64,000 bases of DNA, taken from NCBI GenBank assembly GCA_964514995.1, contig CAZETA010000002.1, forward strand, positions 10,530-74,529, in the 5' to 3' direction. The notes beneath the pieces are model-generated. The model made no database searches. It worked only from the letters and a program-made list of their open reading frames with translations, and was not told where the DNA came from. This stretch comes from an uncultured Gammaproteobacteria bacterium (lineage in GTDB: Bacteria; Patescibacteriota; Patescibacteriia; Magasanikbacterales; GWA2-37-8). This document shows, one piece after another, positions 2 through 15,123 of this stretch. Numbering within the stretch: position 1 is the stretch's first letter; every line of letters begins with the position of its first letter. A program made the position numbers and the translations under genes.

Positions 2-1204
2 TTGCCGGCATACCTTGTTCGTTTTGAACTTGCCCACATCGGTAAATATCCATTTCCTTCAACTTTGTTAGAAGTAACTGTTGGATTGTTATTTTTGGTG
101 TGGTTGAGTAAGTATGCACGAGAGGATTGGGAAAGAATTAGGGCTACTATACAAAGTCATGGGCTATTTTTTGTCGGGTTAGCCGCATTTTTTTTAGCAT
201 CTGTTATCAGTATCTTTGTCAGTGACATGGTATTTTACTCGCTCGGGGAGTGGCGGGCATATTTTCTGGAGCCGATGATTTTCTTTTTGATTCTTTTGGG
301 ACGAAAGGATGTTTTAAAAACTATAGATTTGCTCTGGGCATTAATTTTTTCGACAGTGAGTATTAGTGCGTACTCAGTGTTCCAAGAATTTGCTGGCTGG
401 GGGATTGCCACACCTGAATGGACAAATGCTGCTACCCGCCGCGTCACGGCTTTTTTTACTTCGCCCAATGCAGTTGGATTGTATCTGGCGCCCATTTTGC
501 CGATTATGTGTGCTGTAATTCTAAAACAGTGGGAGCCTTTAAAGAAATTGAATATCAAAACAATCGGATTATTAGGCGTGTCCTTTCTAGCTGTGTTAGC
601 TCTATTATTTACTAAATCACAAGGTGCGTGGATTGGTTTGGGTGCGGGCATACTTGTGTTTTTATTTTTTTTGGGATTTAGAAATATTACCATTGGTTTG
701 GCAGTGGCTGGAATTGTCATGGCGTTGGCAATGCCGTCTATACGCCAAGCTTTATTATTTCAAGATCAAGCCGGTAAAAACCGTCTAACATTATGGAGCT
801 ATTCCTGGACTTTTTTGAAACAAAATCCGAAGAATTTTATATTAGGCACAGGTGTGCGCCAGTTTTTCAGAAAAATCCAGAAACCATACTATGATAAAAA
901 GGTAATGGAACGGCTAATCTATCCTCATAATATTTTCTTGAATTTCTGGACAGAAATTGGTTTGGTAGGTGCGTTGGCGGCGACTTCTATCATTGGCTAT
1001 GCAGTGTATTTAGCCAACAAAATCAGAAAACTTAATAAAATATTAGGCGCTGGATTTATGGGAGCGTTGACGGCGCTAGTCGTACATGGGCTTGTGGATG
1101 TGCCGTATTTTAAGAACGATCTGGCATTTTTATTTTGGATTTTAATTGCCAGTATAATCATTGCCTATGCGTATTTATATAAAAACCAAACCAGCGGCGC
1201 ATGA
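2..1204 (+). CDS. O-antigen ligase-like (Wzy_C/WaaL family) polytopic membrane protein, 5'-partial at window edge
   Basis: Many predicted TM helices; the motif region 'YPHNIFLNFWTEIGLVGALA' resembles the Wzy_C periplasmic loop. The ORF runs from the window edge. Confidence 0.5.
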   Translation: MPAYLVRFELAHIGKYPFPSTLLEVTVGLLFLVWLSKYAREDWERIRATIQSHGLFFVGLAAFFLASVISIFVSDMVFYSLGEWRAYFLEPMIFFLILLGRKDVLKTIDLLWALIFSTVSISAYSVFQEFAGWGIATPEWTNAATRRVTAFFTSPNAVGLYLAPILPIMCAVILKQWEPLKKLNIKTIGLLGVSFLAVLALLFTKSQGAWIGLGAGILVFLFFLGFRNITIGLAVAGIVMALAMPSIRQALLFQDQAGKNRLTLWSYSWTFLKQNPKNFILGTGVRQFFRKIQKPYYDKKVMERLIYPHNIFLNFWTEIGLVGALAATSIIGYAVYLANKIRKLNKILGAGFMGALTALVVHGLVDVPYFKNDLAFLFWILIASIIIAYAYLYKNQTSGA

Positions 1205-1385
1205 GAATAAGGTAGAAAAGAACGACGAAACACATTTTACAGTTTGGGTGAAAGAACCGCCGCAGAATGGATTAGCAAACAGGGGAGTGATAAGAAATCT
1301 GGCAGAATATTTTGATGTGCCGCAGTCTACAGTTGTAATTAAAACAGGGTTTACTAGCAAGAGTAAAATTATTGAAATTACATAA
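1161..1385 (+). CDS. DUF167 (YggU-like) small protein
   Basis: 74 aa; the pattern 'THFTVWVKEPPQNGLANRGVIRNLAEYFDVPQSTVVIKTGFTSKSKIIEI' matches the YggU/DUF167 architecture. It overlaps the upstream gene end. Confidence 0.5.
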   Translation: MPMRIYIKTKPAAHENKVEKNDETHFTVWVKEPPQNGLANRGVIRNLAEYFDVPQSTVVIKTGFTSKSKIIEIT

Positions 1386-1393
1386 CTTTGCCA

Positions 1394-1480
1394 ATACTTT
1401 TTGTCACCAAAAAGTATCAAAAAGTGTTGGGGCCGCAGAACTCCCCGCCTCGGCGGGTCAAACAGCTGTCGCCCCAAACC
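1394..1480 (+). repeat. Conserved intercistronic structured element, copy 1 (perfect 8-bp hairpin ACTTTTTG-tcac-CAAAAAGT, then GTTGGGGCCGCAGAACTC ... TCAAACAGCTGYCGCCCYAAACC)
   Basis: Near-identical to 31221-31319. It starts 9 nt after the DUF167 stop and ends about 40 nt before the malic-enzyme ATG. The long-range pairing GGGGCCGCAG/CTGTCGCCCC encloses a variable hairpin. Confidence 0.6.
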
Positions 1481-1519
1481 TCGAGATGTAAAATAAGTTG
1501 TTTTAAAAATTATTACAGT

Positions 1520-2662
1520 ATGTCAGATGTCTATAAAGATTCCTTAAAACTCCATAAAAAGATTCGTGGAAAACTGGGAGTAGTGAGTAAGATAAAAATA
1601 AAGAATAAAAAAGATTTGTCCTTGGCATATACTCCTGGCGTGGCTGAGGTATGTCGGGTAATCGGAAGAGACAAAAAAATGGCGCGTGAATATACGCTCA
1701 AGAGAAATACGATCGCGGTTGTTTCCGATGGGTCGGCTATTTTGGGCCTGGGCAATCTCGGGCCGGAAGCAGCAATTCCGGTTATGGAGGGCAAGGCAGT
1801 CTTATTCAAGGAATTATCCGACTTGGACGCTTTTCCGATTTGTCTTGATACTCAAGATGCAGAAGAAATTATAAAAGCTGTAAAGTACTTAGCGCCCGTG
1901 TTTGGCGGTATAAATTTGGAAGACATTTCTGCGCCTCGTTGTTTTGAGATTGAAGAGAGGTTAAAAAAAGAATTAAGCATTCCGGTCATGCATGATGATC
2001 AGCATGGTACGGCCGTGGTGGTTTTGGCAGCGATGATTAACGCCATGAAACTCAAAAAAATGGATAAGACCAAAGCAAAGATTGTAATTAGTGGCGCCGG
2101 AGCAGCCGGAACGGCGATAACAAAACTATTGTTGTTATACGGATTTACCAACATAGCTGTCTGTGATTCAAAAGGACTTTTGCATGAGGGGAGGACTGAT
2201 CTTAATGCTGCTAAGAGGGAATTAGCGCAAATCACTCGTCAAGAAAAACAGACTGATAAAAGTTTAAAAGAATCCTTAATGAATGCGGATGTGTTTATTG
2301 GTGTGAGCGGCCCTAATATTATTGGCGCAGAAGAGGTGGTGAGCATGAATAAAAAGCCGGTTCTATTTGCGTGCGCCAATCCTGTGCCAGAGATTATGCC
2401 TGACGTTGCCAAAGCTGGTGGCGCCTATATTGTAGCTACTGGTCGTTCTGATTTTCCTAACCAGCTTAATAATTTATTAGTGTTCCCCGGCGTTTTTAGA
2501 GGCGCGCTTGATAATAATGTAACTCAGATTACCGATAGTATGTTAATCAAAGCCGCCGAGAACTTGGCTCGGTATGTAAGAAAATTGAGCCCTGAAAATA
2601 TTTTGCCAAATCCATTGGATAGAGGTGTGGTCAGGGTGGTGGCACGGGCAATCAGAGGTTAG
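1520..2662 (+). CDS. NAD(P)-dependent malic enzyme (short MaeB-type)
   Basis: Malic-enzyme N-terminal and NAD-binding motifs (LAYTPGVAEVC, VSDGSAILGLGNLGP, GAGAAGTA). Start reassigned to the internal ATG at 1520; the ORF-track start at 1388 lies inside the repeat element. Confidence 0.85.
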   Translation: MSDVYKDSLKLHKKIRGKLGVVSKIKIKNKKDLSLAYTPGVAEVCRVIGRDKKMAREYTLKRNTIAVVSDGSAILGLGNLGPEAAIPVMEGKAVLFKELSDLDAFPICLDTQDAEEIIKAVKYLAPVFGGINLEDISAPRCFEIEERLKKELSIPVMHDDQHGTAVVVLAAMINAMKLKKMDKTKAKIVISGAGAAGTAITKLLLLYGFTNIAVCDSKGLLHEGRTDLNAAKRELAQITRQEKQTDKSLKESLMNADVFIGVSGPNIIGAEEVVSMNKKPVLFACANPVPEIMPDVAKAGGAYIVATGRSDFPNQLNNLLVFPGVFRGALDNNVTQITDSMLIKAAENLARYVRKLSPENILPNPLDRGVVRVVARAIRG

Positions 2663-2673
2663 ACAAATAAAAA

Positions 2674-2698
2674 ATCGATGTAGTCATCGATTTTTTTT
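2674..2698 (+). terminator. Rho-independent terminator (ATCGATG-tagt-CATCGAT + T8)
   Basis: Perfect 7-bp stem followed by a T-run, 12 nt after the malic-enzyme stop. It sits between convergent genes. Confidence 0.6.
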
Positions 2699-2717
2699 GG
2701 CCGATCTCTTTTAAGGA

Positions 2718-3197
2718 CTAATTGGATGGTGGAGGCAGTGTTGTTGATTTCTGTTTCTTCCAAAATATTAAGCTCAAAATAAATAAAGTTGTAGAGGTCG
2801 CGGCTGAACCCATGCAATAGAGGCAAATAGATTTAAGTATAAACAGTTGGATATAGACAAAACCAAGTGAAGCTAAAAAACCAAGCGTAGTTATACAAGC
2901 AACGAGTTTCAGAACCGTTACTTTTTTTGTTTCAAGATAGACTGCGCTCAAAATCATTACAGTTAGATAGAATAATGCGCCAAACAGAGCGGTGGGTATG
3001 CCGTAAAGGACGGAGTATTTACTAGTGAGCACAATTTCACAGCCGTGCAAAATAGAGCAGGGAACCGGAGTTCCTAAAAAATGTTTAATCGACAAGTAGG
3101 TTGCGTCGGCAAAACCAAGGGCGCTGATAATAAGAAAGGCAACAGGTAGCCAATTAGGAATTGTTTGCTTGTTGGATAATTCCACGGAATTGTTCAT
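2718..3197 (-). CDS. Vitamin K epoxide reductase (VKOR) family membrane protein
   Basis: Loop Cys pair (PCSILHGC) and TM CXXC (CLYC); 4-5 TM helices. Confidence 0.75.
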   Translation of the reverse strand: MNNSVELSNKQTIPNWLPVAFLIISALGFADATYLSIKHFLGTPVPCSILHGCEIVLTSKYSVLYGIPTALFGALFYLTVMILSAVYLETKKVTVLKLVACITTLGFLASLGFVYIQLFILKSICLYCMGSAATSTTLFILSLIFWKKQKSTTLPPPSN

Positions 3198-3918
3198 AGC
3201 TTTGAGGGTTTTGAATTTTTTGATTATTTAAGAAGAAGGTGGGAGTTCCGTCTATCTGAGCGGTACCACTTTGGACATCGGCTTCAATGTTGTTTTTTAC
3301 CTCGCTTGAGTCGAAGTCGGCTTTAAATTTTTCTAAATTTAAACCCAATTTTTCCGCATAGGTATTAAAAATATCTTTAGCATTCTTTTCTTCAGACCAG
3401 AATCTTTGGCCGTCAAACAGCAAGTCGTGCATTTCCCAAAATTTACCCTGCATTCCCGCCGCCTCTGCGGCCTGGGCTGCGATTCTGGCATTACCATGTT
3501 GCTGTAAAGGGAAGTGTCTGTACACAACTGCTAAGTTTGGAAAGTCCTTAACGAGTTGCTTGACCAGCGGATAGTAGGCGCCGCAAGCAGGGCATTGAAA
3601 ATCACTGTATTCAATCAGGGTAACTTGGGATTTTGTATCTCCAACTTGTTGGCCGCCGTCCTGTAAAGGCGCGCCTTTTATCCAGTCCGTTTCATCAGCT
3701 GCCCGAACACTGCCGCCAACAAAGTTTGTGCCAGGGTTTTTTGAGGCCATGGCTACCATGATGGCAATGGTACCTCCGACAAAAATAGTAATAAAAGACC
3801 ACAACAAGACTGAAGTCAGCCGTTTTTTCCGCTGCTCAGCCAGTTGTCTGTTTATTTTCTCTTCCTTTTTTAATTCCTGCCGTTCTTTTTTGCTTAAGTC
3901 TTGAGTGTTATCTTCCAT
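3154..3918 (-). CDS. DsbA-like thioredoxin-fold thiol-disulfide oxidoreductase (membrane-anchored)
   Basis: CPAC active site (YSDFQCPACGAY) and an N-terminal TM anchor. It overlaps the VKOR gene by 44 nt, consistent with a VKOR-DsbA redox pair. Confidence 0.75.
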   Translation of the reverse strand: MEDNTQDLSKKERQELKKEEKINRQLAEQRKKRLTSVLLWSFITIFVGGTIAIMVAMASKNPGTNFVGGSVRAADETDWIKGAPLQDGGQQVGDTKSQVTLIEYSDFQCPACGAYYPLVKQLVKDFPNLAVVYRHFPLQQHGNARIAAQAAEAAGMQGKFWEMHDLLFDGQRFWSEEKNAKDIFNTYAEKLGLNLEKFKADFDSSEVKNNIEADVQSGTAQIDGTPTFFLNNQKIQNPQSYEQFRGIIQQANNS

Positions 3919-4722: not shown

Positions 4723-5253
4723 TCACTTCTTAATTTTATAATGAATCAGGATTGTGTCTCGTTTGTTTATTTTTTTAATGGATATTAGTTTTACTTTGCT
4801 TGTTGCAGTTCCGCCAATAAACATATCTTTTCCGCGTCCAAAAATCAATGGCTCAATACTAATAAACACTTCGTCCAGCAGTTCATTTTCTAGCATATAT
4901 CTGTATACTGATCCGCCGCCTAGCACAGCCACGGTTTTGTATGTACCTAGAATTGGTTGGAGGTCTATTGTTGCAGGGTTTACAAACGTAACCGAACCAC
5001 GTTTTTGAATGTTCTTAATTCGACTGGACAGGACAAATGTATTGCGCTGGCGCAGTCGAGCGGCCGCGGCCGTATAGGTATTTCGTCCGACAACGACGGC
5101 TTCCGTCTCGGCTAGGGATTTTTGCAAGAATTGCCAGTCTTCGGGGCTGGTCCAGTCAGGCATCTTTTTCGTAGTCAGAGAAATTTTTCCGTCCACGCTG
5201 GCGGCTATGAAGGCGGTATATTTTGTTTTAGACTGCGGTTGTTTGGTTTTCAT
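4723..5253 (-). CDS. RibD C-terminal domain / dihydrofolate-reductase-like reductase
   Basis: 'FIAASVDGKIS...VVVGRNTY...VAVLGGGSVY' is typical of RibD_C/DHFR-like proteins. Confidence 0.6.
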   Translation of the reverse strand: MKTKQPQSKTKYTAFIAASVDGKISLTTKKMPDWTSPEDWQFLQKSLAETEAVVVGRNTYTAAAARLRQRNTFVLSSRIKNIQKRGSVTFVNPATIDLQPILGTYKTVAVLGGGSVYRYMLENELLDEVFISIEPLIFGRGKDMFIGGTATSKVKLISIKKINKRDTILIHYKIKK

Positions 5254-5887
5254 TTCGTTCCTTTAGAAGATAAATACCCACATATGAAAGCGGTGTATAT
5301 AACGCCCCCATTGCCACCTTGTATAGCCACCAGGCAATGATGATACTTACCAGGGTATTAGTCGGGTACACACCGACAAAAGCGATGATCATAAAGATGA
5401 CTGTGTCTAAAAATTGTGACCAGATATTAGATAGAGTTGATCGTAGCCAGAATTTTTTTTCACCAAATTTGCTACGGAAGAAGAAAAATGACAACACATC
5501 TTGATATTCGGCGATTAAGAAGGCGACAAGCGAGGCGATGGCAATGCGTACGGATACCCCAAATACATCATTATATCCTGCTCGCACCCACTCGCTTTTT
5601 GGTGACCAAGGCATGGCCAGCGATATTAAGGAATAGGCGATAAAGAGAGCTGTGGCAACAAAACCGGCGAGGACAAAAAATTTAGCCATTCGTTTGCCGT
5701 AGACCTCACCGACGACATCAGTCATCAAGAAAACAAAAGGAAAGTAGAAGACTGATACCGATAAGTTCGTGCCAAAAACAAAAGGCATTAGTTTGAGCCC
5801 CAGGGTATTAGCCGCGAACAGGGATACGAGGTAAATTCCTAGAGCGATAATTAGTTTTTTAAATGATTTTTCGCTGAGTTGAATCAT
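5228..5887 (-). CDS. YhhQ/DUF165-family (queuosine-precursor transporter-like) membrane protein
   Basis: Polytopic membrane protein with a YhhQ-like C-terminal region. Start reassigned to Met22 (ATG at 5887). Confidence 0.45.
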   Translation of the reverse strand: MIQLSEKSFKKLIIALGIYLVSLFAANTLGLKLMPFVFGTNLSVSVFYFPFVFLMTDVVGEVYGKRMAKFFVLAGFVATALFIAYSLISLAMPWSPKSEWVRAGYNDVFGVSVRIAIASLVAFLIAEYQDVLSFFFFRSKFGEKKFWLRSTLSNIWSQFLDTVIFMIIAFVGVYPTNTLVSIIIAWWLYKVAMGALYTPLSYVGIYLLKERNENQTTAV

Positions 5888-6131
5888 AGAGAAACTTAAA
5901 TAAGTAAATGAGAAATAAAAAACCGCCGATAGGGCGGGCACAGCAAACACAAAAAAGAAGCCCGTCTATCGCAGAGAGGAAATACGGCCAGTGAAGCTGG
6001 ACCAGGTGGTTGTGTGTTTATTATTTAACATAGGTTTTCATAGGTTTTTATGCTTGGAGGCATTATAGCAGGAGGTATGGATTTGGCAAGAGGTTATTTT
6101 TAGAAATAGACATCTTGGTTCTATTAACAAC

Positions 6132-6159
6132 AAAAAACCATCCTTTTTCTAGGATGGTC
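6132..6159 (-). terminator. Rho-independent terminator on minus strand (GACCATCC/GGATGGTC + T6)
   Basis: rc reads GACCATCCTAGAAAAAGGATGGTTTTTTG, downstream of the GC-rich minus-strand ORF. Confidence 0.45.
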
Positions 6160-6414
6160 TCTGTTAGTCGGGATTGTGGGACGAAGTTGGAACATATTTA
6201 TTCCAACATTAATCTGTGTCAGATACTATACCAGCGCATTAAATTTTTGTAAACAAAAAGACCTCCGTAATATTTACAAAGGCCTTTATGTTGAATTTAT
6301 CAAGGCTACTCTCGTTATGGCTTTAGATAGCTAAAACGATAACGAGATGGAATAGCCTTGATGAGCGCAACCCCAGAGCTCGCCAGCCGAAGCCGGAAGA
6401 TCGGGGTCGCCCGC

Positions 6415-6873
6415 CTAGAACAGGTCGAGGTCGCCGAGCTCGAGCACCCGGACCTGCGCGGGCTTCTCGCGGACGAGGTACGCGTCGTAGTTGCGGACGC
6501 GGTTCTTGTCCTTGGAGAAGAGGGTCGCGAGGTGCCACGTCTCGTCGCCGATCTGGATCGAGCCGTCCTCGTTCACCTTGACCTCGGTGCCCTTCTTCTT
6601 GGCGTTGGTGAGCGACAGCCGCGGGCCGTCCTTGCAGACGATGCCCGAGATCTTCTCCGCCGGCATGACCACCTCGCCCTTGACGTTGACGTAGGTGAGG
6701 TTGGTCGGCACGGCGAACGCGAGGTCCGGCTCCGGCGTGATGATCGGCTCGCCGTACTGGCCGGGGCTGACCATGTAGTACTGCCGCTCGCCGTTCGGAC
6801 CCAGGTTCAGGATCTTGTACTCGCCGGTCGTCTCGTCGATCTCCACCGTCCACTGCTTGTTCGTCGCCTGCAT
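6415..6873 (-). CDS. Hypothetical protein encoded in a ~65% GC foreign-looking island (about 152 aa)
   Basis: Protein-like translation (MQATNKQWTVEIDETTGEYKILNLGPNGERQYYMVSPGQYGEP...) with extreme GC3 codon bias. GGAGG RBS 7 nt upstream of the ATG. The two overlapping long ORFs in this island are Arg/Ala-rich antisense artefacts. Confidence 0.5.
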   Translation of the reverse strand: MQATNKQWTVEIDETTGEYKILNLGPNGERQYYMVSPGQYGEPIITPEPDLAFAVPTNLTYVNVKGEVVMPAEKISGIVCKDGPRLSLTNAKKKGTEVKVNEDGSIQIGDETWHLATLFSKDKNRVRNYDAYLVREKPAQVRVLELGDLDLF

Positions 6874-7107
6874 CGCAGACCTCCAGGATGCCCGAACTTG
6901 TCGGGCGTGTGGTGCCTTACCTAAACGGACCGCCCGTTTTTGGTTTGGCAGAGTTGCTACGCGTCCTCCTTGAAGGGCGCGCACGCCAGTATAATCGTAA
7001 AATTACCATTATACAGGCGTATAAGACAACAAAATACTATACTATAATTTATAGCTTTTGTCAATGAAAATGCTTGGAATTATTTTAAATACTTATTAAA
7101 GTAGCTA

Positions 7108-7136
7108 TTGACTTACAACTTATCATTTGCTATCAT
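7108..7136 (+). promoter_or_regulatory. Sigma70-like promoter (TTGACT-17-TATCAT) upstream of helicase gene
   Basis: Consensus-like hexamers with a 17-nt spacer, 23 nt upstream of ATG 7159. Confidence 0.35.
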
Positions 7137-7158
7137 TTAGTATTATAATCTAATTTCT

Positions 7159-9213
7159 ATGGAAGAAGACAATAATCTTAAAAAAGAATTTGGCAACTGG
7201 TTTTCAATTGAGGAGGCTTCGGACTACCTGGGCATGGGGAAAACCGTGTTATATACTCTTGCGCGCGAAGGGAAGATTCCTGCTAGTAAGGTTGGAAAAA
7301 AATGGTCCTTTGAGAAAGAGCAATTAAATACTTGGCTTCGTGCTAATCAACCGATGAATTCTTTTTTTACAAATTTGGACTATAAAATTGAGGACAATGA
7401 AGAGTTGCGCGACCCTCAACGTGAGGCCTATTTACGAGTTTATGACTTTTTTCAGTCAGGTAAAAATAAAGCAATACTGCAAATTCCGGTTGGGTGTGGT
7501 AAGTCAGGTTTAGCTTCTATTCTTCCTCTTGGTATCGCTAGAGGGCGCGTTTTAATTATTGCGCCAAATTTAACTATAAAGAAAAATCTTTATGATGCTA
7601 TGGATATAACAAATCGCCAAAAGTGTTTTTGGCGAAAAGCAAAAGTTTTAAGTAATGCACAAATGGTATCCGGCCCATTAGCCTGTACCCTAGAAACAGG
7701 TAATATTTCTGTGGCTGAAAAAGCACATATTGTTATTACAAATATACAGCAGCTTTCAACGAATGTAGATAAATGGTTAACCCAATTTCCAGACCGTTTT
7801 TTTGATATGATTATTATTGACGAGGCACATCACAGCGCAGCGGATAGTTGGAAAAAAGTACTGGATCGTTTCCCAGAGGCCAAAGTTATCCATATGACAG
7901 CTACGCCATTCCGTAGTGATCAGCAAGAAATAGATGGTGAACTCGTGTATCGCTATTCGTTTAAGAGTGCAACCCTTAAAGGATATATTAAAAGATTAAA
8001 GGCAAGTTATGTTGCGCCAAAAGAAATAGAGTTGTCCTTTACTGACGGTACGGGGAAAAGATATACACTTGAGGAAGTTCTTAAAATGAAAGAGGATGAT
8101 TGGTTTAGTAGAAATGTCGCACTGGCAAAACCTTGCAATCAGCACATTGTTGAGAGTAGTTTAGAAAAACTTGAGAATTTGCGACAGACGGGTACTCGCC
8201 ATCAGATAATTGCTGTAGCATGCAGTATAAATCATGCAAAAGATATTCGTGCTATTTATCGTGAGCGAGGATTTAATGCAGATATAATTCACAGTAAACA
8301 AGAGCAAAAGGAGCAAGAAGAGGTATTAAATAATCTTTATAACGGTACTTTAGATTGTATTATTCAGGTTCAAATGCTGGGCGAAGGCTTTGACCATCCT
8401 AAATTAAGTGTCGCAGCAATTTTCCGTCCTTTTCGTACTCTGGCACCCTATATTCAATTTGTAGGTCGGATCATGCGTGTAGTTGTACAGAATGATCCTG
8501 CTCATCCAGACAATTTAGGACATATTGTCACTCATCTTGGGATGAATCTTGACCAGCGTGTAAAAGAGTTTAAACAATTTGAAAATGACGACCAAGCTTT
8601 TTGGGAAAAAGTTGTTGGTGGTGCAGAACCAGAAGTTCCTCCGGCTGTACGTAATGGCTCAGGCCGACTCACCGTTTCTGAAAACGATGTTGTTGTTAAT
8701 GATGAAGTGGTAGATTCATTATGGGAAGAAGATTTTGCTGATATTGATGAGAAACACATTATTGACGATTTAAAAGACAGGTTAAAATTGTATGGGCTTG
8801 ATCCGGACAAAGCGGAAGAAATTATAAAAAGCGCAAAACGTGGCGGAATAACACGCAACGCGCCAACCGAAGCTTTTCCTGTTCAACCGCAAAAAGAATG
8901 GGAGGAATTAAAACGCCGTGTCAGTGATCAGAGTACTAGGATCGCAAAGATTCTATTAAATAATTTATCTCTAGATATAGGGGGGGCAGAGTTAGCATAT
9001 AAATACACTAGTCTTAAGGCTAGGGCCAAGAATAATTTAGTTTCCGCAATAATGCTAGTTAGTCATGAAATTAATTCACGTCTGGGCAAGGAAAGGTCAC
9101 AGTGTAGTAGTGAGGATTTTAAAAATATTTTGGAACCTAAAGTACTTGAGGATATTCTTCAAACTTTAGTCCGTCGTGTGCATAAAGCGAAAAGTGAATA
9201 TGAAAGAAAATAA
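7159..9213 (+). CDS. Excisionase-type HTH fused to SF2 DEAD/DEAH-box (ResIII-type) helicase with helicase C-terminal domain and a ~200-aa uncharacterised tail
   Basis: N-terminal HTH (NWFSIEEASDYLGMGKTVLYTLAREGKIPASKVGKKWSF); Walker A (PVGCGKSGLAS); DEAH (IIIDEAHHSAA); motif VI (QFVGRIMR). Confidence 0.8.
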   Translation: MEEDNNLKKEFGNWFSIEEASDYLGMGKTVLYTLAREGKIPASKVGKKWSFEKEQLNTWLRANQPMNSFFTNLDYKIEDNEELRDPQREAYLRVYDFFQSGKNKAILQIPVGCGKSGLASILPLGIARGRVLIIAPNLTIKKNLYDAMDITNRQKCFWRKAKVLSNAQMVSGPLACTLETGNISVAEKAHIVITNIQQLSTNVDKWLTQFPDRFFDMIIIDEAHHSAADSWKKVLDRFPEAKVIHMTATPFRSDQQEIDGELVYRYSFKSATLKGYIKRLKASYVAPKEIELSFTDGTGKRYTLEEVLKMKEDDWFSRNVALAKPCNQHIVESSLEKLENLRQTGTRHQIIAVACSINHAKDIRAIYRERGFNADIIHSKQEQKEQEEVLNNLYNGTLDCIIQVQMLGEGFDHPKLSVAAIFRPFRTLAPYIQFVGRIMRVVVQNDPAHPDNLGHIVTHLGMNLDQRVKEFKQFENDDQAFWEKVVGGAEPEVPPAVRNGSGRLTVSENDVVVNDEVVDSLWEEDFADIDEKHIIDDLKDRLKLYGLDPDKAEEIIKSAKRGGITRNAPTEAFPVQPQKEWEELKRRVSDQSTRIAKILLNNLSLDIGGAELAYKYTSLKARAKNNLVSAIMLVSHEINSRLGKERSQCSSEDFKNILEPKVLEDILQTLVRRVHKAKSEYERK

Positions 9214-9454
9214 ATCTCCCAGAGGAAAAACCCCTTCACTTATTGGTTCAGCTAACGGTAGGCCAAAAAGAATAATTGTCCAAAAAAAGAGTGAATGTAA
9301 GCGATGTCACTGTGATATTTTAGTTGGCCATGATTGTTTCGGTATTCCAAAAGCAACTTCTTCTTTTGGTAGTATCAGAAGATTTTGTAAGGAGTGTTTT
9401 TATAAAATTATCGAACAAACTCGCGTTGATTTAGAAGAGTTAAAGACTTTATAG
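9200..9454 (+). CDS. Small zinc-ribbon protein (CxxC...CxxC), overlapping helicase stop by 14 nt
   Basis: CKRCHC and CKEC pairs in a basic N-terminus; overlap with the helicase gene suggests translational coupling. Confidence 0.5.
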   Translation: MKENKSPRGKTPSLIGSANGRPKRIIVQKKSECKRCHCDILVGHDCFGIPKATSSFGSIRRFCKECFYKIIEQTRVDLEELKTL

Positions 9455-9465
9455 CCTTAAAAGGT

Positions 9466-9939
9466 TCATTTATTCCCAGCAATAAACTCATTCAGCCAAT
9501 GAGCGTCATCCTTAGCTAGTATCAAAAGCCCATCAGGATGATTAGACTCTTCTTTTCCATTTCTATCTTGTGAAGGTGAAGAAGTCCAAATACTCACTAT
9601 CCAAACACCGCACATGCTGGCTAGTATACCTTTTTCAATCTTAACATTTTGAATAGCTTTAATCATTATCGTGCGGGATTTTTTTAATATAATACCCCAG
9701 TTAACTTCTATTTTATTTTTATCTACCGTAAAAGTATTTGCCTTAGTGTCCAGTAATATCCAAATTGACATTGGTAGTACCAAAATTAAAACAGCCACCC
9801 AGAAGAAAGAAAACCAGACAGTAAAGCTCCATAAAAATATTAAAGGGGTAGATAGTAACAGGAGAGGCAGTACTAATTTTAGAATTTTATACCATCCAGC
9901 CTTAGCTGGTAACTTGTTAGTTTCTCCTACCTTGATCAT
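9466..9939 (-). CDS. bPH_2 (YdbT-like, DUF304) membrane-flanked PH-domain protein
   Basis: Two N-terminal TM helices followed by a PH-like domain; opposite strand to its neighbours. Confidence 0.5.
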   Translation of the reverse strand: MIKVGETNKLPAKAGWYKILKLVLPLLLLSTPLIFLWSFTVWFSFFWVAVLILVLPMSIWILLDTKANTFTVDKNKIEVNWGIILKKSRTIMIKAIQNVKIEKGILASMCGVWIVSIWTSSPSQDRNGKEESNHPDGLLILAKDDAHWLNEFIAGNK

Positions 9940-10248
9940 ATAACGTAAAGTTAAATAAATAATAAATTAAAAACAAAAACGGCCCCTTTATCCGGGCGGC
10001 AACCTTTCGGTCGCCCTATCACCTTTCGGTGAAAGACCACAAGTAGTACCCGGTCAAAAAGACCGTTTTCTACTTGTGGATTTGATGACCATGCCCTAGA
10101 TTTTATCTAGAGTTTAGGTCTAAATTGTCGTGATTATATTACCACGCCTTTTTAGCCTTTGCAATCTTGACTTTTAGCTATTATCCGTTCAAAATAAGCC
10201 ACATTCCTGGCCTTCCTATTATCGGTTAGTTTAACTATAAGAATACGT

Positions 10249-11202
10249 ATGGATAAAATTAACCTTCAAGAATATTACATTGAAGAACATGTTTACAAGG
10301 GCGATTACTACAACCCTAATTTTATAATTACTGTCGCCGTTGCAGAACTAAGTAAGCGCTTAGTGTATCTTTCCCGTAATGGTTATACCATAGGCAAATA
10401 TAAAAAAGCTGATCAGACACATAGAGAACCGCCTAAGTCCTTGTCCCAACTTGAATACACGACTAATTTCCACTTCTTAATAGCAATAAGAAAGAATTTT
10501 AGCATTGATAATAGCAAGACGAAACTTATCATTCTGAAATTACTTAACAAAAAAGGGTTTAAAAAGGAGATTGCAAACTTAAATCACCTTATCCATAGTG
10601 GAGAAAAATATTATCAAGAATTTAGAAAATTGGCATTTGAACTATTAAAATCTGACCTTAACCCGCGGGATAATAAAAATTTTGAAGCTATCAAAAAAGA
10701 TAGGGGTTTTAACAGTAAAGAGCTTGAAAAACAATTCTTATACAGTGTTTACATAGACCATCTAAAAAGAAAATTCAAAATACCAGATCAGTATAATTTT
10801 GTGCTAGAAACTATTATTGAAAAAGGATTTGATTACACAATTGATTTTATCGATACTCTTACTTTAAACAATTTAGCCTACTTGGATTACTATAATTGTA
10901 TCCCTTACTTTATACCATCACACAATTATCTTGGCTGTAAGTACGCTCAACAACCTGAGCATAAAAATATAATAAAATCTTTGCCAATAGTCTATTACTT
11001 TAGTCAAAAATATCTTAAAGATACGGTTACTGATCTTCCGGCTATTAATTATGAATCTTATTATTCTGTATACAGGCTAACAAAACAAAAACCCGGGTTA
11101 ACCGATAAAGAAATTGCCGAACAACTATTAGGGGCATGTGGAAAAAAGGAAGTTGATAGAATTAAGCAAACTAGAGCGCGTTTAAGACATCTTCTAGCAT
11201 AA
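10249..11202 (+). CDS. Hypothetical protein with a possible C-terminal HTH (element-associated)
   Basis: No recognised catalytic motif. The C-terminus 'LTDKEIAEQLLGACGKKEVDRIKQTRARLRHL' resembles a sigma-region-4/LuxR-type HTH. Confidence 0.45.
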   Translation: MDKINLQEYYIEEHVYKGDYYNPNFIITVAVAELSKRLVYLSRNGYTIGKYKKADQTHREPPKSLSQLEYTTNFHFLIAIRKNFSIDNSKTKLIILKLLNKKGFKKEIANLNHLIHSGEKYYQEFRKLAFELLKSDLNPRDNKNFEAIKKDRGFNSKELEKQFLYSVYIDHLKRKFKIPDQYNFVLETIIEKGFDYTIDFIDTLTLNNLAYLDYYNCIPYFIPSHNYLGCKYAQQPEHKNIIKSLPIVYYFSQKYLKDTVTDLPAINYESYYSVYRLTKQKPGLTDKEIAEQLLGACGKKEVDRIKQTRARLRHLLA

Positions 11203-11223
11203 AGTGACATTAAAATTTTTTAT

Positions 11224-11424
11224 TTGTCACCATTTTGGCTAACCATAGCCATTTTTTTGTGTTATGGTGGATCAATGCCACTTAAATTCAGCCCACAACT
11301 TATTGAACGCCTGCAGAGGCATTTTCGTGAGCGCTTTGATGTTGAGGTTAGTGACGAAAAGGCCGAAGAGTATCTGCATTCATTAGCAGAGTTGTTTGGG
11401 CTATTTACTGATTTGCCAGATTAG
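11224..11424 (+). CDS. Small hypothetical protein (likely start at ATG 11275)
   Basis: Short ORF immediately upstream of the primase gene with no motif; low support. Confidence 0.3.
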   Translation: MSPFWLTIAIFLCYGGSMPLKFSPQLIERLQRHFRERFDVEVSDEKAEEYLHSLAELFGLFTDLPD

Positions 11425-11433
11425 TGTTTTCAC

Positions 11434-13255
11434 GTGCCGCCTTTGGCGGCCGTGAAAATGCTATCAGTTATTTTAGATAAAATTATATTACAGTATATGG
11501 AAGATATAAATCCTTGTTACCAAGCCGCATTAGCTTATTTAGCTAAGGGTTTTTCAGTTATTCCCATTATGAGAGGCGATAAAAAGCCATGTATTAAATG
11601 GCAGTTATTTCAAAAACAATTGCCTAGTATTGATGAAGTAAATAATTGGTTTAAAACTTTTCCTGATGCGCAAGTAGGTATTGTTACTGGCAAAATCTCT
11701 AACCTTATTGTTATTGATATAGATAAAAAAACTGGCGGGTTAGAATCCGTCAAGAATATTCATTTACCAGTTACCGCTATTGTTGAAACTGGTGGGGGGT
11801 GGTTTCCATTATTACTATCGTCTTCTTTCTGGGGTAGAAATAAAAAATTCAGCTGGTCAGATTGCTCCTGGTATAGATATTCGGGCCGAAGGCGGCTATG
11901 TAGTTGCTCCTCCCTCTATCCATTCGTCAGGTAATCTTTATCAATGGGTAAGCTCTTTAGAAGAGCAAGAAATTGCTTTGTGCCCAGATTGGTTACTCAA
12001 AGAAAATACTAAACAATATAAAAATAAGCTTAATACAGCAGAATTACCAAATTTAATTATTAGTGAAGGCAGCAGAAACAATGATCTGGCCCGTTGGGCT
12101 GGTTTGGTTTTAAGTAAGTTAGAAAGAGATGACTATGAATTAATCGGGTGGCCCTGGTTGCAAAATTTAAATGAAAAACAAGTTAGACCTCCATTATTAG
12201 AAAAAGAACTTCGGACTATCTTTGATAGCATAAAAAGATCAGAAACCTCTAAATTAAATAATAGCTCTGATACGCCTGTAAATATTGCGCCGGTATTATG
12301 GCAAGAATTTAATAAATTAGAATTCCCGCCTGAACGATGGCGAATTAACAGTCTTATCCCCTTACAGGGAGTGGTAATCATTGCCTCTCCATCTGGTGAA
12401 AAGAAAACATGGCTAGCTATGGAAATGGCCAAATCTATTTCTCTTGGTGAAAACTTTCTTTTATACCCTGATTTTGAAACAAAAAAATCCAATGTCCTAT
12501 ATATTGATATGGAAATGTCACAAGATGAACTACAGCGTCGGGGACGACTGCTTGGCTTTAATTTATCAAAAGATAATATTTGGCTGTTAAAAAGTGATAG
12601 TTTTAATCTTAATAATGACCAGGTGGCCAAACAATTATTTGAGTTTATCCAAGAAAAAAGTATTGAGGTTATTTTTGTTGATACGCTCCGAGCCGTAGCT
12701 GGTGGCATGCCTGAGGAAAAAGCTGAAGAAGTGCGTAAGTTTTTTAATCGTTTAATGCCTTTAAAAAACAAAGGGGTTGTGGCTATATTTCTTGATCATT
12801 GTCGTAAGCCATTGCCCCATGAAGGTAAGGTGCCTAAAAAGGAGCAACTATTTGCTAGCCAGGATAAGGTTGCGTCTGTTGAGGCGCTTATGATGATTCG
12901 TAGCGAAGGCAGAAGTAATATTATTAGAGTCTATAACGTCAAAAATCGTATAGGTAAAGAGTTTGCCCCTTTTAGTATTCTTATTGAAGACCAAGGAGAT
13001 AGAACTACTCTATCATTTGGTGAAATAATACAAGAGAAAGAAACTAAAAAAATAGATGAGGCGAAAGGGTTAATTATATTTAATCTTAAGGAAGGTCCGA
13101 AAACACGTCAGGAGATTTTGGCTATCGGCGATGCTCAAGATATTAAATCACGTAATATGTCAGACGCATTACGTCAGTTAGAGAAAGATAAAATAATTCT
13201 TGCCAAGAAAGTCGGTAAGGAAAACCAGTATTTTTTGCCAATAGACGAGCCATAA
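11434..13255 (+). pseudogene. Prim-Pol (bifunctional primase-polymerase) plus P-loop (AAA_25/RepA-like) primase-helicase, split by a 1-nt frameshift in a G6 tract
   Basis: Prim-Pol motifs IDIDKK and (T)GGGG-FHYYY are split across two frames at the G6 run 11794-11799. The downstream P-loop region reads IIASPSGEKKTWLAMEMA and VLYIDMEMS. Confidence 0.7.
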
Positions 13256-13388
13256 AGATGGTTGCCACGATTGGTTTATCAATCGTGGCAAAGTGGCAAG
13301 GTATATATACTATAATGATTTTTGCCACGGTCACTTTACAGTTTTATGTAGAAACAGTAGGGTAAGGGTATTCTAAGGCTCATAAAAT

Positions 13389-14858
13389 ATGAAATACATC
13401 GCTTATTGTCGTAAATCTACGGAATCTGAGGATAGGCAGGTTTTATCTATAGAATCACAAGCAAATGAAATGTATAAGAGTGCTGAACGTAATAATGTTG
13501 TGTTAGATAAAATTTTTACCGAAAGTATGTCGGCCAAAGCCCCGGGCCGCCCTGTATTTAAAGAAGTGATGGCCTATATTGAAAAAAATGGTCCTTGTAT
13601 TCTGTATGTTTGGAAATTAGATCGTCTGGCCCGGAATGCTTTTGAAGCCGGTCAGATTTCGTGGTTCATGGATAGGAAATTAATTATTGAAATTCGTACG
13701 TTTGAAAAAGTATATAAAAATATTTCTGACGATAAATTTTTCATGAGTTTGGATTTTGGTATTGCGAAAAAATATGTTGATGATTTAAGTACTAATGTAA
13801 AGCGGGGGATACGAACAAAAATAGAAAAGGGCGGTTGGCCGAGTAAAGCTCCATTTGGATATGTAAACGATAGAGGGAATAAAGTTATTTTTCCTGATTT
13901 AGTAATGGCGCCCCTTATTACGGAGATGTTTAATTTATATTCTAGCGGTGGTTGCAGTATTAAAGACCTGGTAAATATCATGTACGAAAAGGGCTTGCGT
14001 ACATTGAAGGGCTATAAGGCCAGTAAAAGCGTTTTACATCGTACTCTTACCAATCCAGTGTATTGCGGATTTATTAGGAAAGATAATAAGCTTTTTGTTG
14101 GCAATCATGTGGCGATTATTTCTAAAGATATTTTTGATAATGTCCAAGATATAATTAATGGAAAAAACAAAAGTAGAAAGCAAGTCTATAGTTTTCCGCA
14201 TCGGGGATATATGCGATGCCATGTTTGTGGATGTGCCTTAACTGGCTCACTTAAAAAGGGTCATGTGTATTACTACTGCACAAACGGCAAAGGTATTTGC
14301 CAAGAACAAAAGAAAGGGTATTTACGCTCTGAAGTAGTAGATGGCTTAATGGCTGATATTTTTGGAAGGATTGAATTTGATGAGGAAACCATTGAAATAA
14401 TGTACCTGGCTAAAAAGGAAGAAATGGCTTATGACAAGAATTATGCTGTAACTGCCATACAGAATCTTACTAAACAGGCTTCTCTGGCCCGTGAGAAGCA
14501 GGGTAAGCTGGTAGATAGTTATTTGGCTGGTAATATTCCTGAAGACCTTTATAACGCAAAAATACAGGCTCTTAATAATGAGGTGGTTGCTGCAGAGTCA
14601 CAACTCAAGAAATTACAGCAAAAGCATATTAATATTGAATCTACTTTGGAACTCACTAGAAAGAAGTTTTTATCCGCTTCTGTAGCCAAAAAAGAATTTC
14701 TTGAGCAAGATAATATAAAAAAGCGTAAAGTGCTTGGAAATGTACTTTGGAACCTCACTATTGAAAATAAGGATTTGGCTTCATATAAACTAAAAGACCC
14801 CTACCAAAGGATGGCGGAGGTCTCCAAAAACTGCACTTTTGCCGAATTGTCGGGGTAG
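13389..14858 (+). CDS. Large serine recombinase (integrase)
   Basis: N-terminal resolvase catalytic motif (YCRKSTESEDRQ...SIESQ), recombinase domain, Cys-rich zinc ribbon (CHVCGCAL...YYYCTNGKGIC) and a C-terminal coiled coil. The TAG stop overlaps the tRNA-Pro 3' end. Confidence 0.85.
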   Translation: MKYIAYCRKSTESEDRQVLSIESQANEMYKSAERNNVVLDKIFTESMSAKAPGRPVFKEVMAYIEKNGPCILYVWKLDRLARNAFEAGQISWFMDRKLIIEIRTFEKVYKNISDDKFFMSLDFGIAKKYVDDLSTNVKRGIRTKIEKGGWPSKAPFGYVNDRGNKVIFPDLVMAPLITEMFNLYSSGGCSIKDLVNIMYEKGLRTLKGYKASKSVLHRTLTNPVYCGFIRKDNKLFVGNHVAIISKDIFDNVQDIINGKNKSRKQVYSFPHRGYMRCHVCGCALTGSLKKGHVYYYCTNGKGICQEQKKGYLRSEVVDGLMADIFGRIEFDEETIEIMYLAKKEEMAYDKNYAVTAIQNLTKQASLAREKQGKLVDSYLAGNIPEDLYNAKIQALNNEVVAAESQLKKLQQKHINIESTLELTRKKFLSASVAKKEFLEQDNIKKRKVLGNVLWNLTIENKDLASYKLKDPYQRMAEVSKNCTFAELSG

Positions 14859-14923
14859 TGGGACTTGAACCCACAATCCCCTGGTCCCAAACCAGGTGCT
14901 CTAGCCAATTGAGCCATACCCCG
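14851..14923 (-). tRNA. tRNA-Pro (anticodon TGG)
   Basis: Cloverleaf by eye: acceptor CGGGGTA/TACCCCG, anticodon stem CCTGG/CCAGG with loop TTTGGGA, T-arm GGGTTCAAGTCCC. Confidence 0.85.
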
Positions 14924-14972
14924 TATTTTGTTTGTGGCACGCTTAGCGTGCCAGCCACAACGCTCAGCGTTG

Positions 14973-15044
14973 TGCCGCGGGTCAGAATTGAACTGACGAC
15001 GCCAGCCTCTTCAGGGCTGCGCTCTACCACTGAGCTACCACGGC
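14973..15044 (-). tRNA. tRNA-Phe (anticodon GAA)
   Basis: Acceptor GCCGTGG/CCGCGGC, D-arm TAGCTCAGTGGTAGAGC, anticodon loop CTGAAGA, T-arm GTCAGTTCAATTCTGAC. Confidence 0.85.
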
Positions 15045-15049
15045 GTTTG

Positions 15050-15123
15050 TGGACCCTATCGGGCTCGAACCGATCACCCCCGCGTTGCAAACGCGGTGCT
15101 CTACCAAATGAGCTAAGGGCCCT
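15050..15123 (-). tRNA. tRNA-Ala (anticodon TGC), with G3:U70
   Basis: Acceptor GGGCCCT/AGGGTCC includes the G3-U70 identity pair; anticodon loop TTTGCAA; T-arm ATCGGTTCGAGCCCGAT. Confidence 0.85.

Follow-up and report, generated by a model that had tools for sequence, protein, structure and literature searches.

The window considered here, that is, the whole 64-kb stretch of contig CAZETA010000002.1 (mean GC 41.9%), contains on its minus strand (6415-6873) a small protein-coding gene, the third codon positions of which are almost exclusively G or C and which forms a sharply bounded GC-rich island. The locus is a compositional-outlier gene packaged as a hairpin-capped single-gene transcript. 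Taken as a whole, and with a probability of about 0.5, it is read as a stand-alone unit that is native to a Magasanikbacteria-like Patescibacterium and has been inherited vertically, and the G + C content of which at third codon positions (GC3) would be kept high by selection acting on the transcript. That the gene is native to the Patescibacteria lineage and that its GC3 is actively maintained is very probable, as judged from the sequence comparisons described below. The first-pass annotation of this DNA had seen in the island a recent acquisition from a high-GC donor, one possibility being the high-GC host of an episymbiont; both proposals are contradicted by a family restricted to low-GC Patescibacteria, by conserved synteny, by saturated synonymous sites and by a host-like G + C content at second codon positions (GC2).

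A GC-rich gene in low-GC Patescibacteria

The GC profile was computed in 100-nt windows, and the island was compared with all other 633-nt windows of the 64-kb stretch. Segment scoring of the window places the maximal GC segment at 6365-6987 (GC 65%), and in the 100-nt profile 6350-6999 has 58-70% GC while the DNA immediately outside has 22-40%. The span 6358-6990 has 64.5% GC, compared with 41.7% (standard deviation 3.6%, maximum 52.4%) in the other 633-nt windows (z = 6.3), so that the island of about 650 bp and about 65% GC reported by the first-pass annotation is indeed at its place. Three long overlapping open reading frames (ORFs) lie in the island, namely 6323-6853 and 6415-6984 on the minus strand and 6358-6924 on the plus strand. 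On the alignments, the real gene is the minus-strand frame 6415-6873 starting at the ATG at 6873, because the N-termini of close homologues align at MQ..KQW; the earlier choice of this frame as the only true gene among the three thus stands, with homologues to E = 1e-83. The coding sequence (CDS) has a GC content of 0.647, with 0.59, 0.35 and 0.99 at the first, second and third codon positions, respectively, and its third positions are A 0.00, C 0.54, G 0.45 and T 0.01. Both the near-exclusive G/C at third positions and the codon-usage outlier status suspected at first reading are therefore real: among the 59 other non-overlapping ORFs of the window, GC3 ranges from 0.27 to 0.52 with a mean of 0.40 (z = 9.3 for the island gene), and for comparison the values of rpoB, rpoC and ribosomal protein L1 in the window are 0.39, 0.44 and 0.43. 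The other two ORFs of the island, one of which reads the reverse complement of each codon while the other begins on codon position 3, are open automatically because the third positions of the real gene lack A and T. Where a homologue has a lower GC3, its alternative frames on the same strand hold 1-10 stops.

Homologues were sought by a word-indexed protein search and then by an exhaustive profile search clustered at 50% identity. The former gave 54 homologues (47-86% identity, E down to 1e-83), all annotated as "hypothetical" and, where named, assigned to Magasanikbacteria, to the Patescibacteria group or to plain "bacterium"; the latter gave 142 family clusters, and the further named members belong to Gracilibacteria and Patescibacteria. 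Exact look-up of the window protein gave no record in public assemblies, no relative was found in IMG/VR viral contigs, and neither a blastn match in the phage collection nor a PHROG match was obtained; on these searches a phage origin was rejected. About 40 loci, roughly 25 of them distinct, were fetched from GTDB genomes, JGI and ENA metagenomes and Logan assemblies; they are labelled L001-L043, proteins of the family P00xx and the window copy WIN. The DNA flanking the homologues has 27-48% GC, and in almost all fetched loci (about 20 distinct ones, from different projects) the homologue is a GC island in flanking DNA of 27-46% GC, with a GC3 of 0.54-0.94 against 0.15-0.44 in its neighbours. 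Even in a genome of 27% GC the homologue has twice the GC3 of its neighbours (0.30 vs 0.15), and the window copy is the most extreme found in the family. The GC2 of the family, in contrast to its GC3, is 0.31-0.42, and that of the window gene (0.35) equals the host average; under the codon-position correlation reportedly described by Muto and Osawa in 1987, a proteome at a GC3 near 1 would be expected to show a GC2 near 0.5. Three loci of this otherwise Patescibacteria-only family, L010 (OZ246405.1, 1.23 Mb), L011 and L013, come from metagenome-assembled genomes named "uncultured Gammaproteobacteria", with DNA of 36-46% GC, and these taxonomic labels may be wrong.

The position of the gene is also conserved. 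A trio of tRNA genes (Ala, Phe and Pro) precedes it in the window, with 7.7 kb between, and the same trio also precedes the gene in L001 (a 359-kb contig; 276 nt between) and in L005 (a 71-kb contig; 1.3 kb), the terminator of tRNA-Pro being common to the window and L001. In L003, L016, L017, L022, L023, L037 and L039/L040, the gene is immediately upstream of pgi. L030, the closest relative, contains orthologues of the window genes at 656-3816, including the malic enzyme gene (76% identity). The age of the trait was examined at synonymous sites, by taking codons with an identical amino acid and identical first two bases and comparing their third-base identity with the expectation from each gene's own codon usage. 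The observed and expected identities were 0.58 and 0.57 for L003/L016, 0.66 and 0.65 for L003/L022 and 0.56 and 0.55 for L005/L033. The pgi next to the gene is also near synonymous saturation, at a GC3 of 0.35-0.44, and the malic enzyme and DsbA-like genes are near it between the window and L030 (0.52 observed vs 0.44-0.48 expected). Consequently, a GC3 of 0.77-0.99 has been retained in orthologues the synonymous sites of which are about saturated, and an import free of constraint would by now have taken on the composition of the host.

These results bear directly on whether horizontal transfer recently brought the gene in from a high-GC donor, which could have been the host of an episymbiont. 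Such an origin would account for the extreme compositional contrast and the sharp boundaries, a mobile element lies next door, and the codon choice of the CDS presumably resembles that of Actinobacteria. Nevertheless, it is scarcely credible: no search, whether judged by the named homologues or by the fetched loci, found a homologue outside low-GC contexts of the Candidate Phyla Radiation (CPR), synteny is kept across relatives, the GC3 outlasts synonymous saturation while GC2 stays host-like, and the promoter, the untranslated regions (UTRs) and the terminator are common to relatives. Moreover, the adjacent mobile element is itself low in GC and is missing from L001, which has the gene; no transposase or integrase is encoded within 6242-7064, no direct repeats flank the island and no att-like repeats were found at the locus. 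An assembly chimera, a vector or a contaminant would explain the abrupt change of composition and nothing else. The JGI, ENA, NCBI and Logan assemblies independently hold the gene in AT-rich CPR DNA, the flanks of the window on both sides recur in L030 and L031 and the phage collection gave no match, so this explanation is very unlikely, to the point of being negligible, because the gene, its UTRs and its flanks were assembled independently in other projects. The locus is therefore a clean counter-example to the use of atypical G + C content as a signature of horizontal transfer.

The transcription unit and its product

The DNA of the window and that of L001 share 83% similarity over exactly 7064-6242, that is, from the -35 box to the terminator, and their flanks are unrelated. 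The GC-rich tract accordingly coincides with the transcribed region and not with a wider neighbourhood, although AT-rich sequence makes up the promoter and roughly the first 40 nt of the leader (coordinates of all features are given in Table 1). The promoter is close to the sigma-70 consensus. A perfect TTGACA -35 box and a good -10 box, often extended by TG, lie upstream of the homologues inspected. The leader, the sequence of which is conserved in L001, L030 and L033, can form the hairpins AACGG-GCGGU-CCGUU and GCCCGA-CAAGU-UCGGGC, and the GGAGG ribosome-binding site seen at first reading is present 6 nt before the start codon. As for termination, a host-style terminator had been placed about 250 nt downstream; such a site exists (6162-6133, minus strand), but a nearer one, at 6287-6257, is the terminator conserved with the gene.

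Several hairpins lie in the 3'UTR, which is about 165 nt long. In a small one, capped by UUCG, a G-U pair is replaced by G-C in L005. The consensus structure of the 3'UTR, built from six loci, comprises 48 pairs, and compensatory changes are seen in 14 of these. Several changes preserve pairing only through G-U, as would be the case for an RNA structure on the sense strand. The motif of the long hairpin occurs as a single copy per locus, always just 3' of the gene, in 12 of the 43 fetched loci, and once in the 64-kb window. As far as these alignments tell, the hairpin is a previously undescribed, gene-specific RNA element. No Rfam family reaches its gathering level in 6200-7100; a match of the Rfam trpB motif in the 3'UTR (34.8 bits vs a threshold of 59) is missing from four homologous loci and was dismissed as a chance match. 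A different conserved leader, ATGCGCATTACCTAYAATGG.GTTGTG.GCAGA.G.CAA, is found about 60-110 nt before the start codon in the pgi-linked L016, L022, L023 and L037, and is sometimes gene-called as MRITYNGVVRR... (the N-terminus of P0038); it could encode a leader peptide or form an RNA stem (GCGCA...UGCGC).

By prediction, the product is a small cytoplasmic all-beta protein, restricted to the CPR, for which the searches detected no relative whose structure or function is known. The family alignment gives the conserved motifs KQW, GxYGxPII, EPDLAF, KIAGIIC.DGPRFSLTNA, DGSIQVG and LFSKDKNR..YDAY, and nearly all members have an ELGDLDLF tail at or near the C-terminus. The AlphaFold2 (AF2) model has 13 strands and one short helix, with a predicted local distance difference test score (pLDDT) of 95.4 and a predicted template modelling score (pTM) of 0.87. 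Foldseek found no match, the best E values being 0.57 in PDB and 0.15 in BFVD, and nothing rose above noise in Pfam, PHROGs, NCBIfam or PADLOC; the lack of a recognisable motif remarked on at first reading thus holds for the family and structure libraries searched, and membership of a defence system was discarded since PADLOC gave no match for the gene. The nearest likeness is with the NHL-repeat beta-propeller of Brat (PDB 4zlr, 1q7f, 5ex7), in that a 64-sequence profile weakly matches two NHL blades with residues of about 61-139 (E = 0.0015) and the pattern D.G.I.V.D..N.R...F is common to both. However, the match is far below the level of membership, Foldseek finds no propeller or other fold, and a propeller is unlikely, unless formed by an oligomer, because 152 residues are too short for it.

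No signal peptide and no conserved operon partner were found. The architecture varies across the family: P0005, P0006, P0008 and P0009 have a conserved helical N-terminal extension of about 45 residues (MKPSFD..ALMRELS..EQFALVNSDNRP.LK.FL), P0056, P0058, P0061, P0074 and P0076 have an N-terminal amphipathic helix (e.g., AISGIISGVKNAISKIG) followed by a disordered linker, which suggests that these members may be tethered to the membrane, and P0055 is a tandem duplication of 426 residues. That the leader of the gene is a decayed form of the 45-residue extension was considered and rejected, as tblastn against five leaders gave nothing meaningful. The terminal DLDLF-COOH presumably resembles docking peptides that fit into a hydrophobic pocket of the partner, namely the beta-clamp-binding motif (QL[SD]LF) and the C-terminal tail of SSB (DDDIPF). 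The acidic-hydrophobic tail ELGDLDLF-COOH probably docks onto a partner protein. The fetched loci contain no SSB gene with which mimicry of the SSB tail could be compared. To judge from the expression signals, the protein is probably abundant.

Possible causes of the third-position composition

The favoured cause of the GC3 saturation, held tentatively and at somewhat less than even odds, is selection for mRNA stability or ribonuclease (RNase) resistance. The excess of G + C is nearly confined to synonymous third positions and the stems of the UTRs. In this proposal, the force maintaining it lineage after lineage acts on the nucleic acid, most likely as selection on the transcript. A GC3-saturated mRNA would offer few AU-rich single-stranded sites to endoribonucleases, hairpins would guard both ends of the transcript, and the mRNA would persist for unusually long and give a high yield in a cell that is otherwise AT-rich. 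Because a strong promoter, a strong Shine-Dalgarno (SD) sequence, a 5' hairpin by the SD and stacked 3' hairpins occur together, a stable, RNase-refractory, high-output mRNA may be what is selected. The CDS folds at -187 kcal/mol, compared with -118 ± 8 kcal/mol for the same protein in the codon usage of rpoBC. In addition, experiments have shown that synonymous composition can affect fitness through the RNA itself, independently of translation (Mittal et al. 2018, PMC6112741).

Several points weigh against this proposal. The minimum free energy (MFE) of the native CDS, compared with synonymous shuffles, gives z = +0.5, -2.7 and -1.2, that is, no consistent excess of structure; a specific conserved fold inside the CDS is not supported on this ground, and any selection would then act on composition and not on a particular fold. 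The RNAalifold consensus of the 5'UTR has 3 compensatory pairs among 4 sequences and no net covariation term, so that this structure is weakly supported. The distant members L041 (GC3 0.31), L043 (0.54 vs about 0.48), L012 and L029 show little or no GC3 excess, so the excess is a trait of a sub-clade and dispensable for the function of the protein. Near-duplicates among the fetched loci make the independent observations fewer than the loci, and both high expression and transcript stability are themselves predictions from the sequence.

A related idea, which is improbable, is that GC3 saturation lets the mRNA survive and be translated while the bulk of the AT-rich mRNA is degraded by an AU- or A-directed endoribonuclease, be it a nuclease of a phage or host or a toxin belonging to a toxin-antitoxin or abortive-infection system, or else that the GC-rich transcript of about 780 nt is a dual-function RNA. 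The counterpart invoked for survival of a nuclease is the engineered "ACA-less mRNA". If either were true, this would be the first natural single gene with its synonymous sites fixed at G/C by selection at the RNA level in a lineage with an otherwise AT-rich genome.

GC-biased gene conversion (gBGC), which is documented in bacteria (Lassalle et al. 2015, PMC4450053), is an unlikely cause. It would require the gene to be a hotspot of strain exchange, for example under diversifying selection, so that heteroduplex repair drives AT to GC regardless of fitness. It would fit the GC tract of the window being one contiguous block that includes the non-coding leader and trailer, as well as the faster evolution of the protein than of the adjacent PGI (59-74% vs 70-90% identity in the same genome pairs among L003, L016, L017, L022 and L023), which is seen despite the strong constraint on its nucleotide composition. 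However, the tract halts at the transcript boundaries, leaving the promoter and the start of the leader AT-rich, and the trait is kept at two different chromosomal positions. Furthermore, in loci with a GC3 of at least 0.7, third-position A (A3, 0-0.09) is shunned more than third-position T (T3, 0.01-0.21), and this is not expected under a strand-symmetric mutational or conversion bias. Lastly, the effects of gBGC in bacteria are reportedly small shifts of GC3 and not a change from 0.4 to 0.99. A different force, translational selection in one hyper-expressed gene, would make C- and G-ending codons the fastest or most accurate, with only the most abundant protein passing the drift barrier in a slow-growing, small-population CPR bacterium. 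The near-consensus promoters of the homologues inspected, the strong GGAGG of the window and subgroup A copies, the preference of NNC over NNU and the strongest avoidance of all, that of third-position A, are in accord with it. It is nonetheless rather improbable, since S12, S7, L27, L1, EF-G, EF-P and RpoB/C of the same genomes have GC3 values of 0.33-0.46, which excludes ordinary expression-linked codon bias as a class effect; the non-coding stems of the UTRs are GC-rich too, and by the general rules of codon optimality G-ending codons would not be favoured over A-ending ones in AT-rich genomes.

There is, finally, a slim chance that the high GC3 serves dual coding, by keeping an overlapping ORF open, for which the antisense frame 6358-6924 on the plus strand is the candidate. 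This frame is free of stops in 13 of 18 homologues, and the codons giving antisense stops (TTA, CTA and TCA) number 9 against 21.9 expected from the third-base usage of each gene. On the other hand, the loci are not independent and avoidance of TA also disfavours TTA and CTA, the predicted antisense product is of low complexity and rich in R, A, D and L, antisense stops are present in L005, L016, L024, L010 and L013, and no separate promoter or ribosome-binding site was identified for the frame. Selection on the stability of the transcript, with the reservations given above, is retained as the preferred cause.

Neighbouring units and comparison with known systems

Table 1. Features of the gene's transcription unit and of its upstream neighbourhood, in positions of the window.
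Feature	Position	Strand	Remarks
Promoter, TTGACA-17 nt-TATAGT	7036-7064	minus	11/12 consensus; in AT-rich DNA just outside the island
5' leader, about 155 nt, predicted transcription start	6874-7029	minus	proximal 116 nt (6874-6989) GC-rich
SD, GGAGG	6884-6880	minus	6 nt before ATG
CDS, 152 aa and TAG stop	6415-6873	minus	C-terminal tail ELGDLDLF
Small 3'UTR hairpin, CCGGC-UUCG-GCUGG	6383-6396	minus	kept in the other four subgroup A/L033 loci
Bipartite 64-nt 3'UTR hairpin, AUCAAGGCUA..CUCGUUAUCG...CCAUAACGAG..UAGCCUUGAU	6299-6362	minus	compensatory and G-U-compatible changes in 6 loci
Intrinsic terminator, 14-bp stem (6287-6257) with U-G pairs, then U tract UUUUGUUU	6247-6287	minus	128 nt past the stop; conserved with the gene
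Low-GC (31-38%) integrative element, about 7.7 kb	about 7065-14780 (boundaries approximate)	plus	between the tRNA-Pro terminator and the gene's promoter
HTH_17-ResIII/DEAD helicase	7159-9213		in element; PbeA-like and type IV restriction endonuclease-like matches in PADLOC
bPH_2 protein	9466-9939	minus	in element
LOOT RNA (RF03000)	9998-10120	minus	82.8 bits vs gathering 46.4, full model length; between the bPH gene and a 317-aa ORF
Prim-Pol	11458-11934		in element
AAA_25	12419-13255		in element
Large serine recombinase (Resolvase and Recombinase domains)	13389 to about 14855-14858		in element; 3' end overlaps tRNA-Pro
tRNA-Ala(tgc), tRNA-Phe(gaa), tRNA-Pro(tgg)	14849-15122	minus	on the gene's strand; conserved upstream synteny anchor

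The mobile DNA at the locus is the low-GC integrative element and not the GC island. At the equivalent site L031 has a recombinase 76% identical to that of the window together with a REP_ORF2-G2P gene, and L001 has no element between tRNA-Pro and the gene. The possibility that the gene is cargo of the element was rejected, because in L001 and L005 the gene follows the same tRNAs, in L001 clearly without the element, and no att-like repeats were found.

Two other small units were noticed on the minus strand downstream of the gene. The one at 6133-6253, right after the gene's terminator, consists of a promoter TTTACA-17-TATAGT with TG (6253-6225), a hairpin GUUGGAAUAAAUAUGUUCCAAC and the terminator at 6162-6133; its sequence is conserved in L030 and it has no Rfam match, and it could be a small RNA of about 85 nt or an attenuator. 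The other, at 5888-6090, has a promoter TTGCCA-16-TATAAT (6089-6062), a leader of about 170 nt and a terminator-like hairpin GCCCGCCCUAUCGGCGGUUUUUU (about 5925-5945), and directly precedes a Vut_1/YhhQ-type transporter gene (5228-5887). This leader gave no Rfam match at E <= 5 and looks like a riboswitch or an attenuator.

Atypical G + C content is a standard signature of horizontal transfer, and a vertically inherited gene that keeps a GC3 of 0.8-0.99 past saturation shows that genome scanners should avoid labelling such islands as foreign or as contamination. The gene also provides a natural test-bed for whether silent-site G + C is kept by RNA selection, by translation or by biased gene conversion, since a single gene contrasts with the rest of its own genome and the comparison recurs in lineages with and without the trait. 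The searchable literature on GC3 and codon usage in Patescibacteria, or on a highly expressed hypothetical protein of Magasanikbacteria, gave nothing relevant and no description of such a case.

Compared with horizontally acquired genomic islands, the locus has the same sharp break in composition, an outlying codon usage and a place near tRNA genes and a recombinase-bearing element; unlike them, it has no mobility genes of its own, occupies the same syntenic site in relatives, is atypical at third positions only and has no donor that could be found. A second comparison is with OLE, GOLLD and ROOL, large structured non-coding RNAs that came to light as intergenic regions of high GC in genomes rich in AT. 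The locus resembles them in its conserved hairpins and its GC contrast with an AT-rich genome, and the Rfam RNA LOOT lies 3 kb away in the element, but the present island is protein-coding, as seen from its conserved amino acids, its synonymous turnover and the confident AF2 model, and it has no Rfam match. A genome-wide preference for G + C in bacteria, by selection or gBGC, is likewise said to have been described, among others by Raghavan et al. in 2012. It is similar in that synonymous G/C is favoured independently of classical codon adaptation, but those are weak genome-wide tendencies or effects in laboratory constructs, whereas here one natural gene stands at a GC3 of 0.8-0.99 and the rest of the genome at about 0.4. 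A further comparison is with "armoured" stable mRNAs, such as those with the 5' stabiliser hairpin of ompA, the STAB-SD of Bacillus thuringiensis cry3A and the 3' retroregulator of cry, in which stability comes from UTR elements only. Like them, the present gene is a stand-alone, strongly promoted unit that has a 5' hairpin by its strong SD and, ahead of the terminator, stable 3' hairpins; unlike them, its stability is a prediction from the sequence and its whole CDS is recoded to G/C at synonymous sites.

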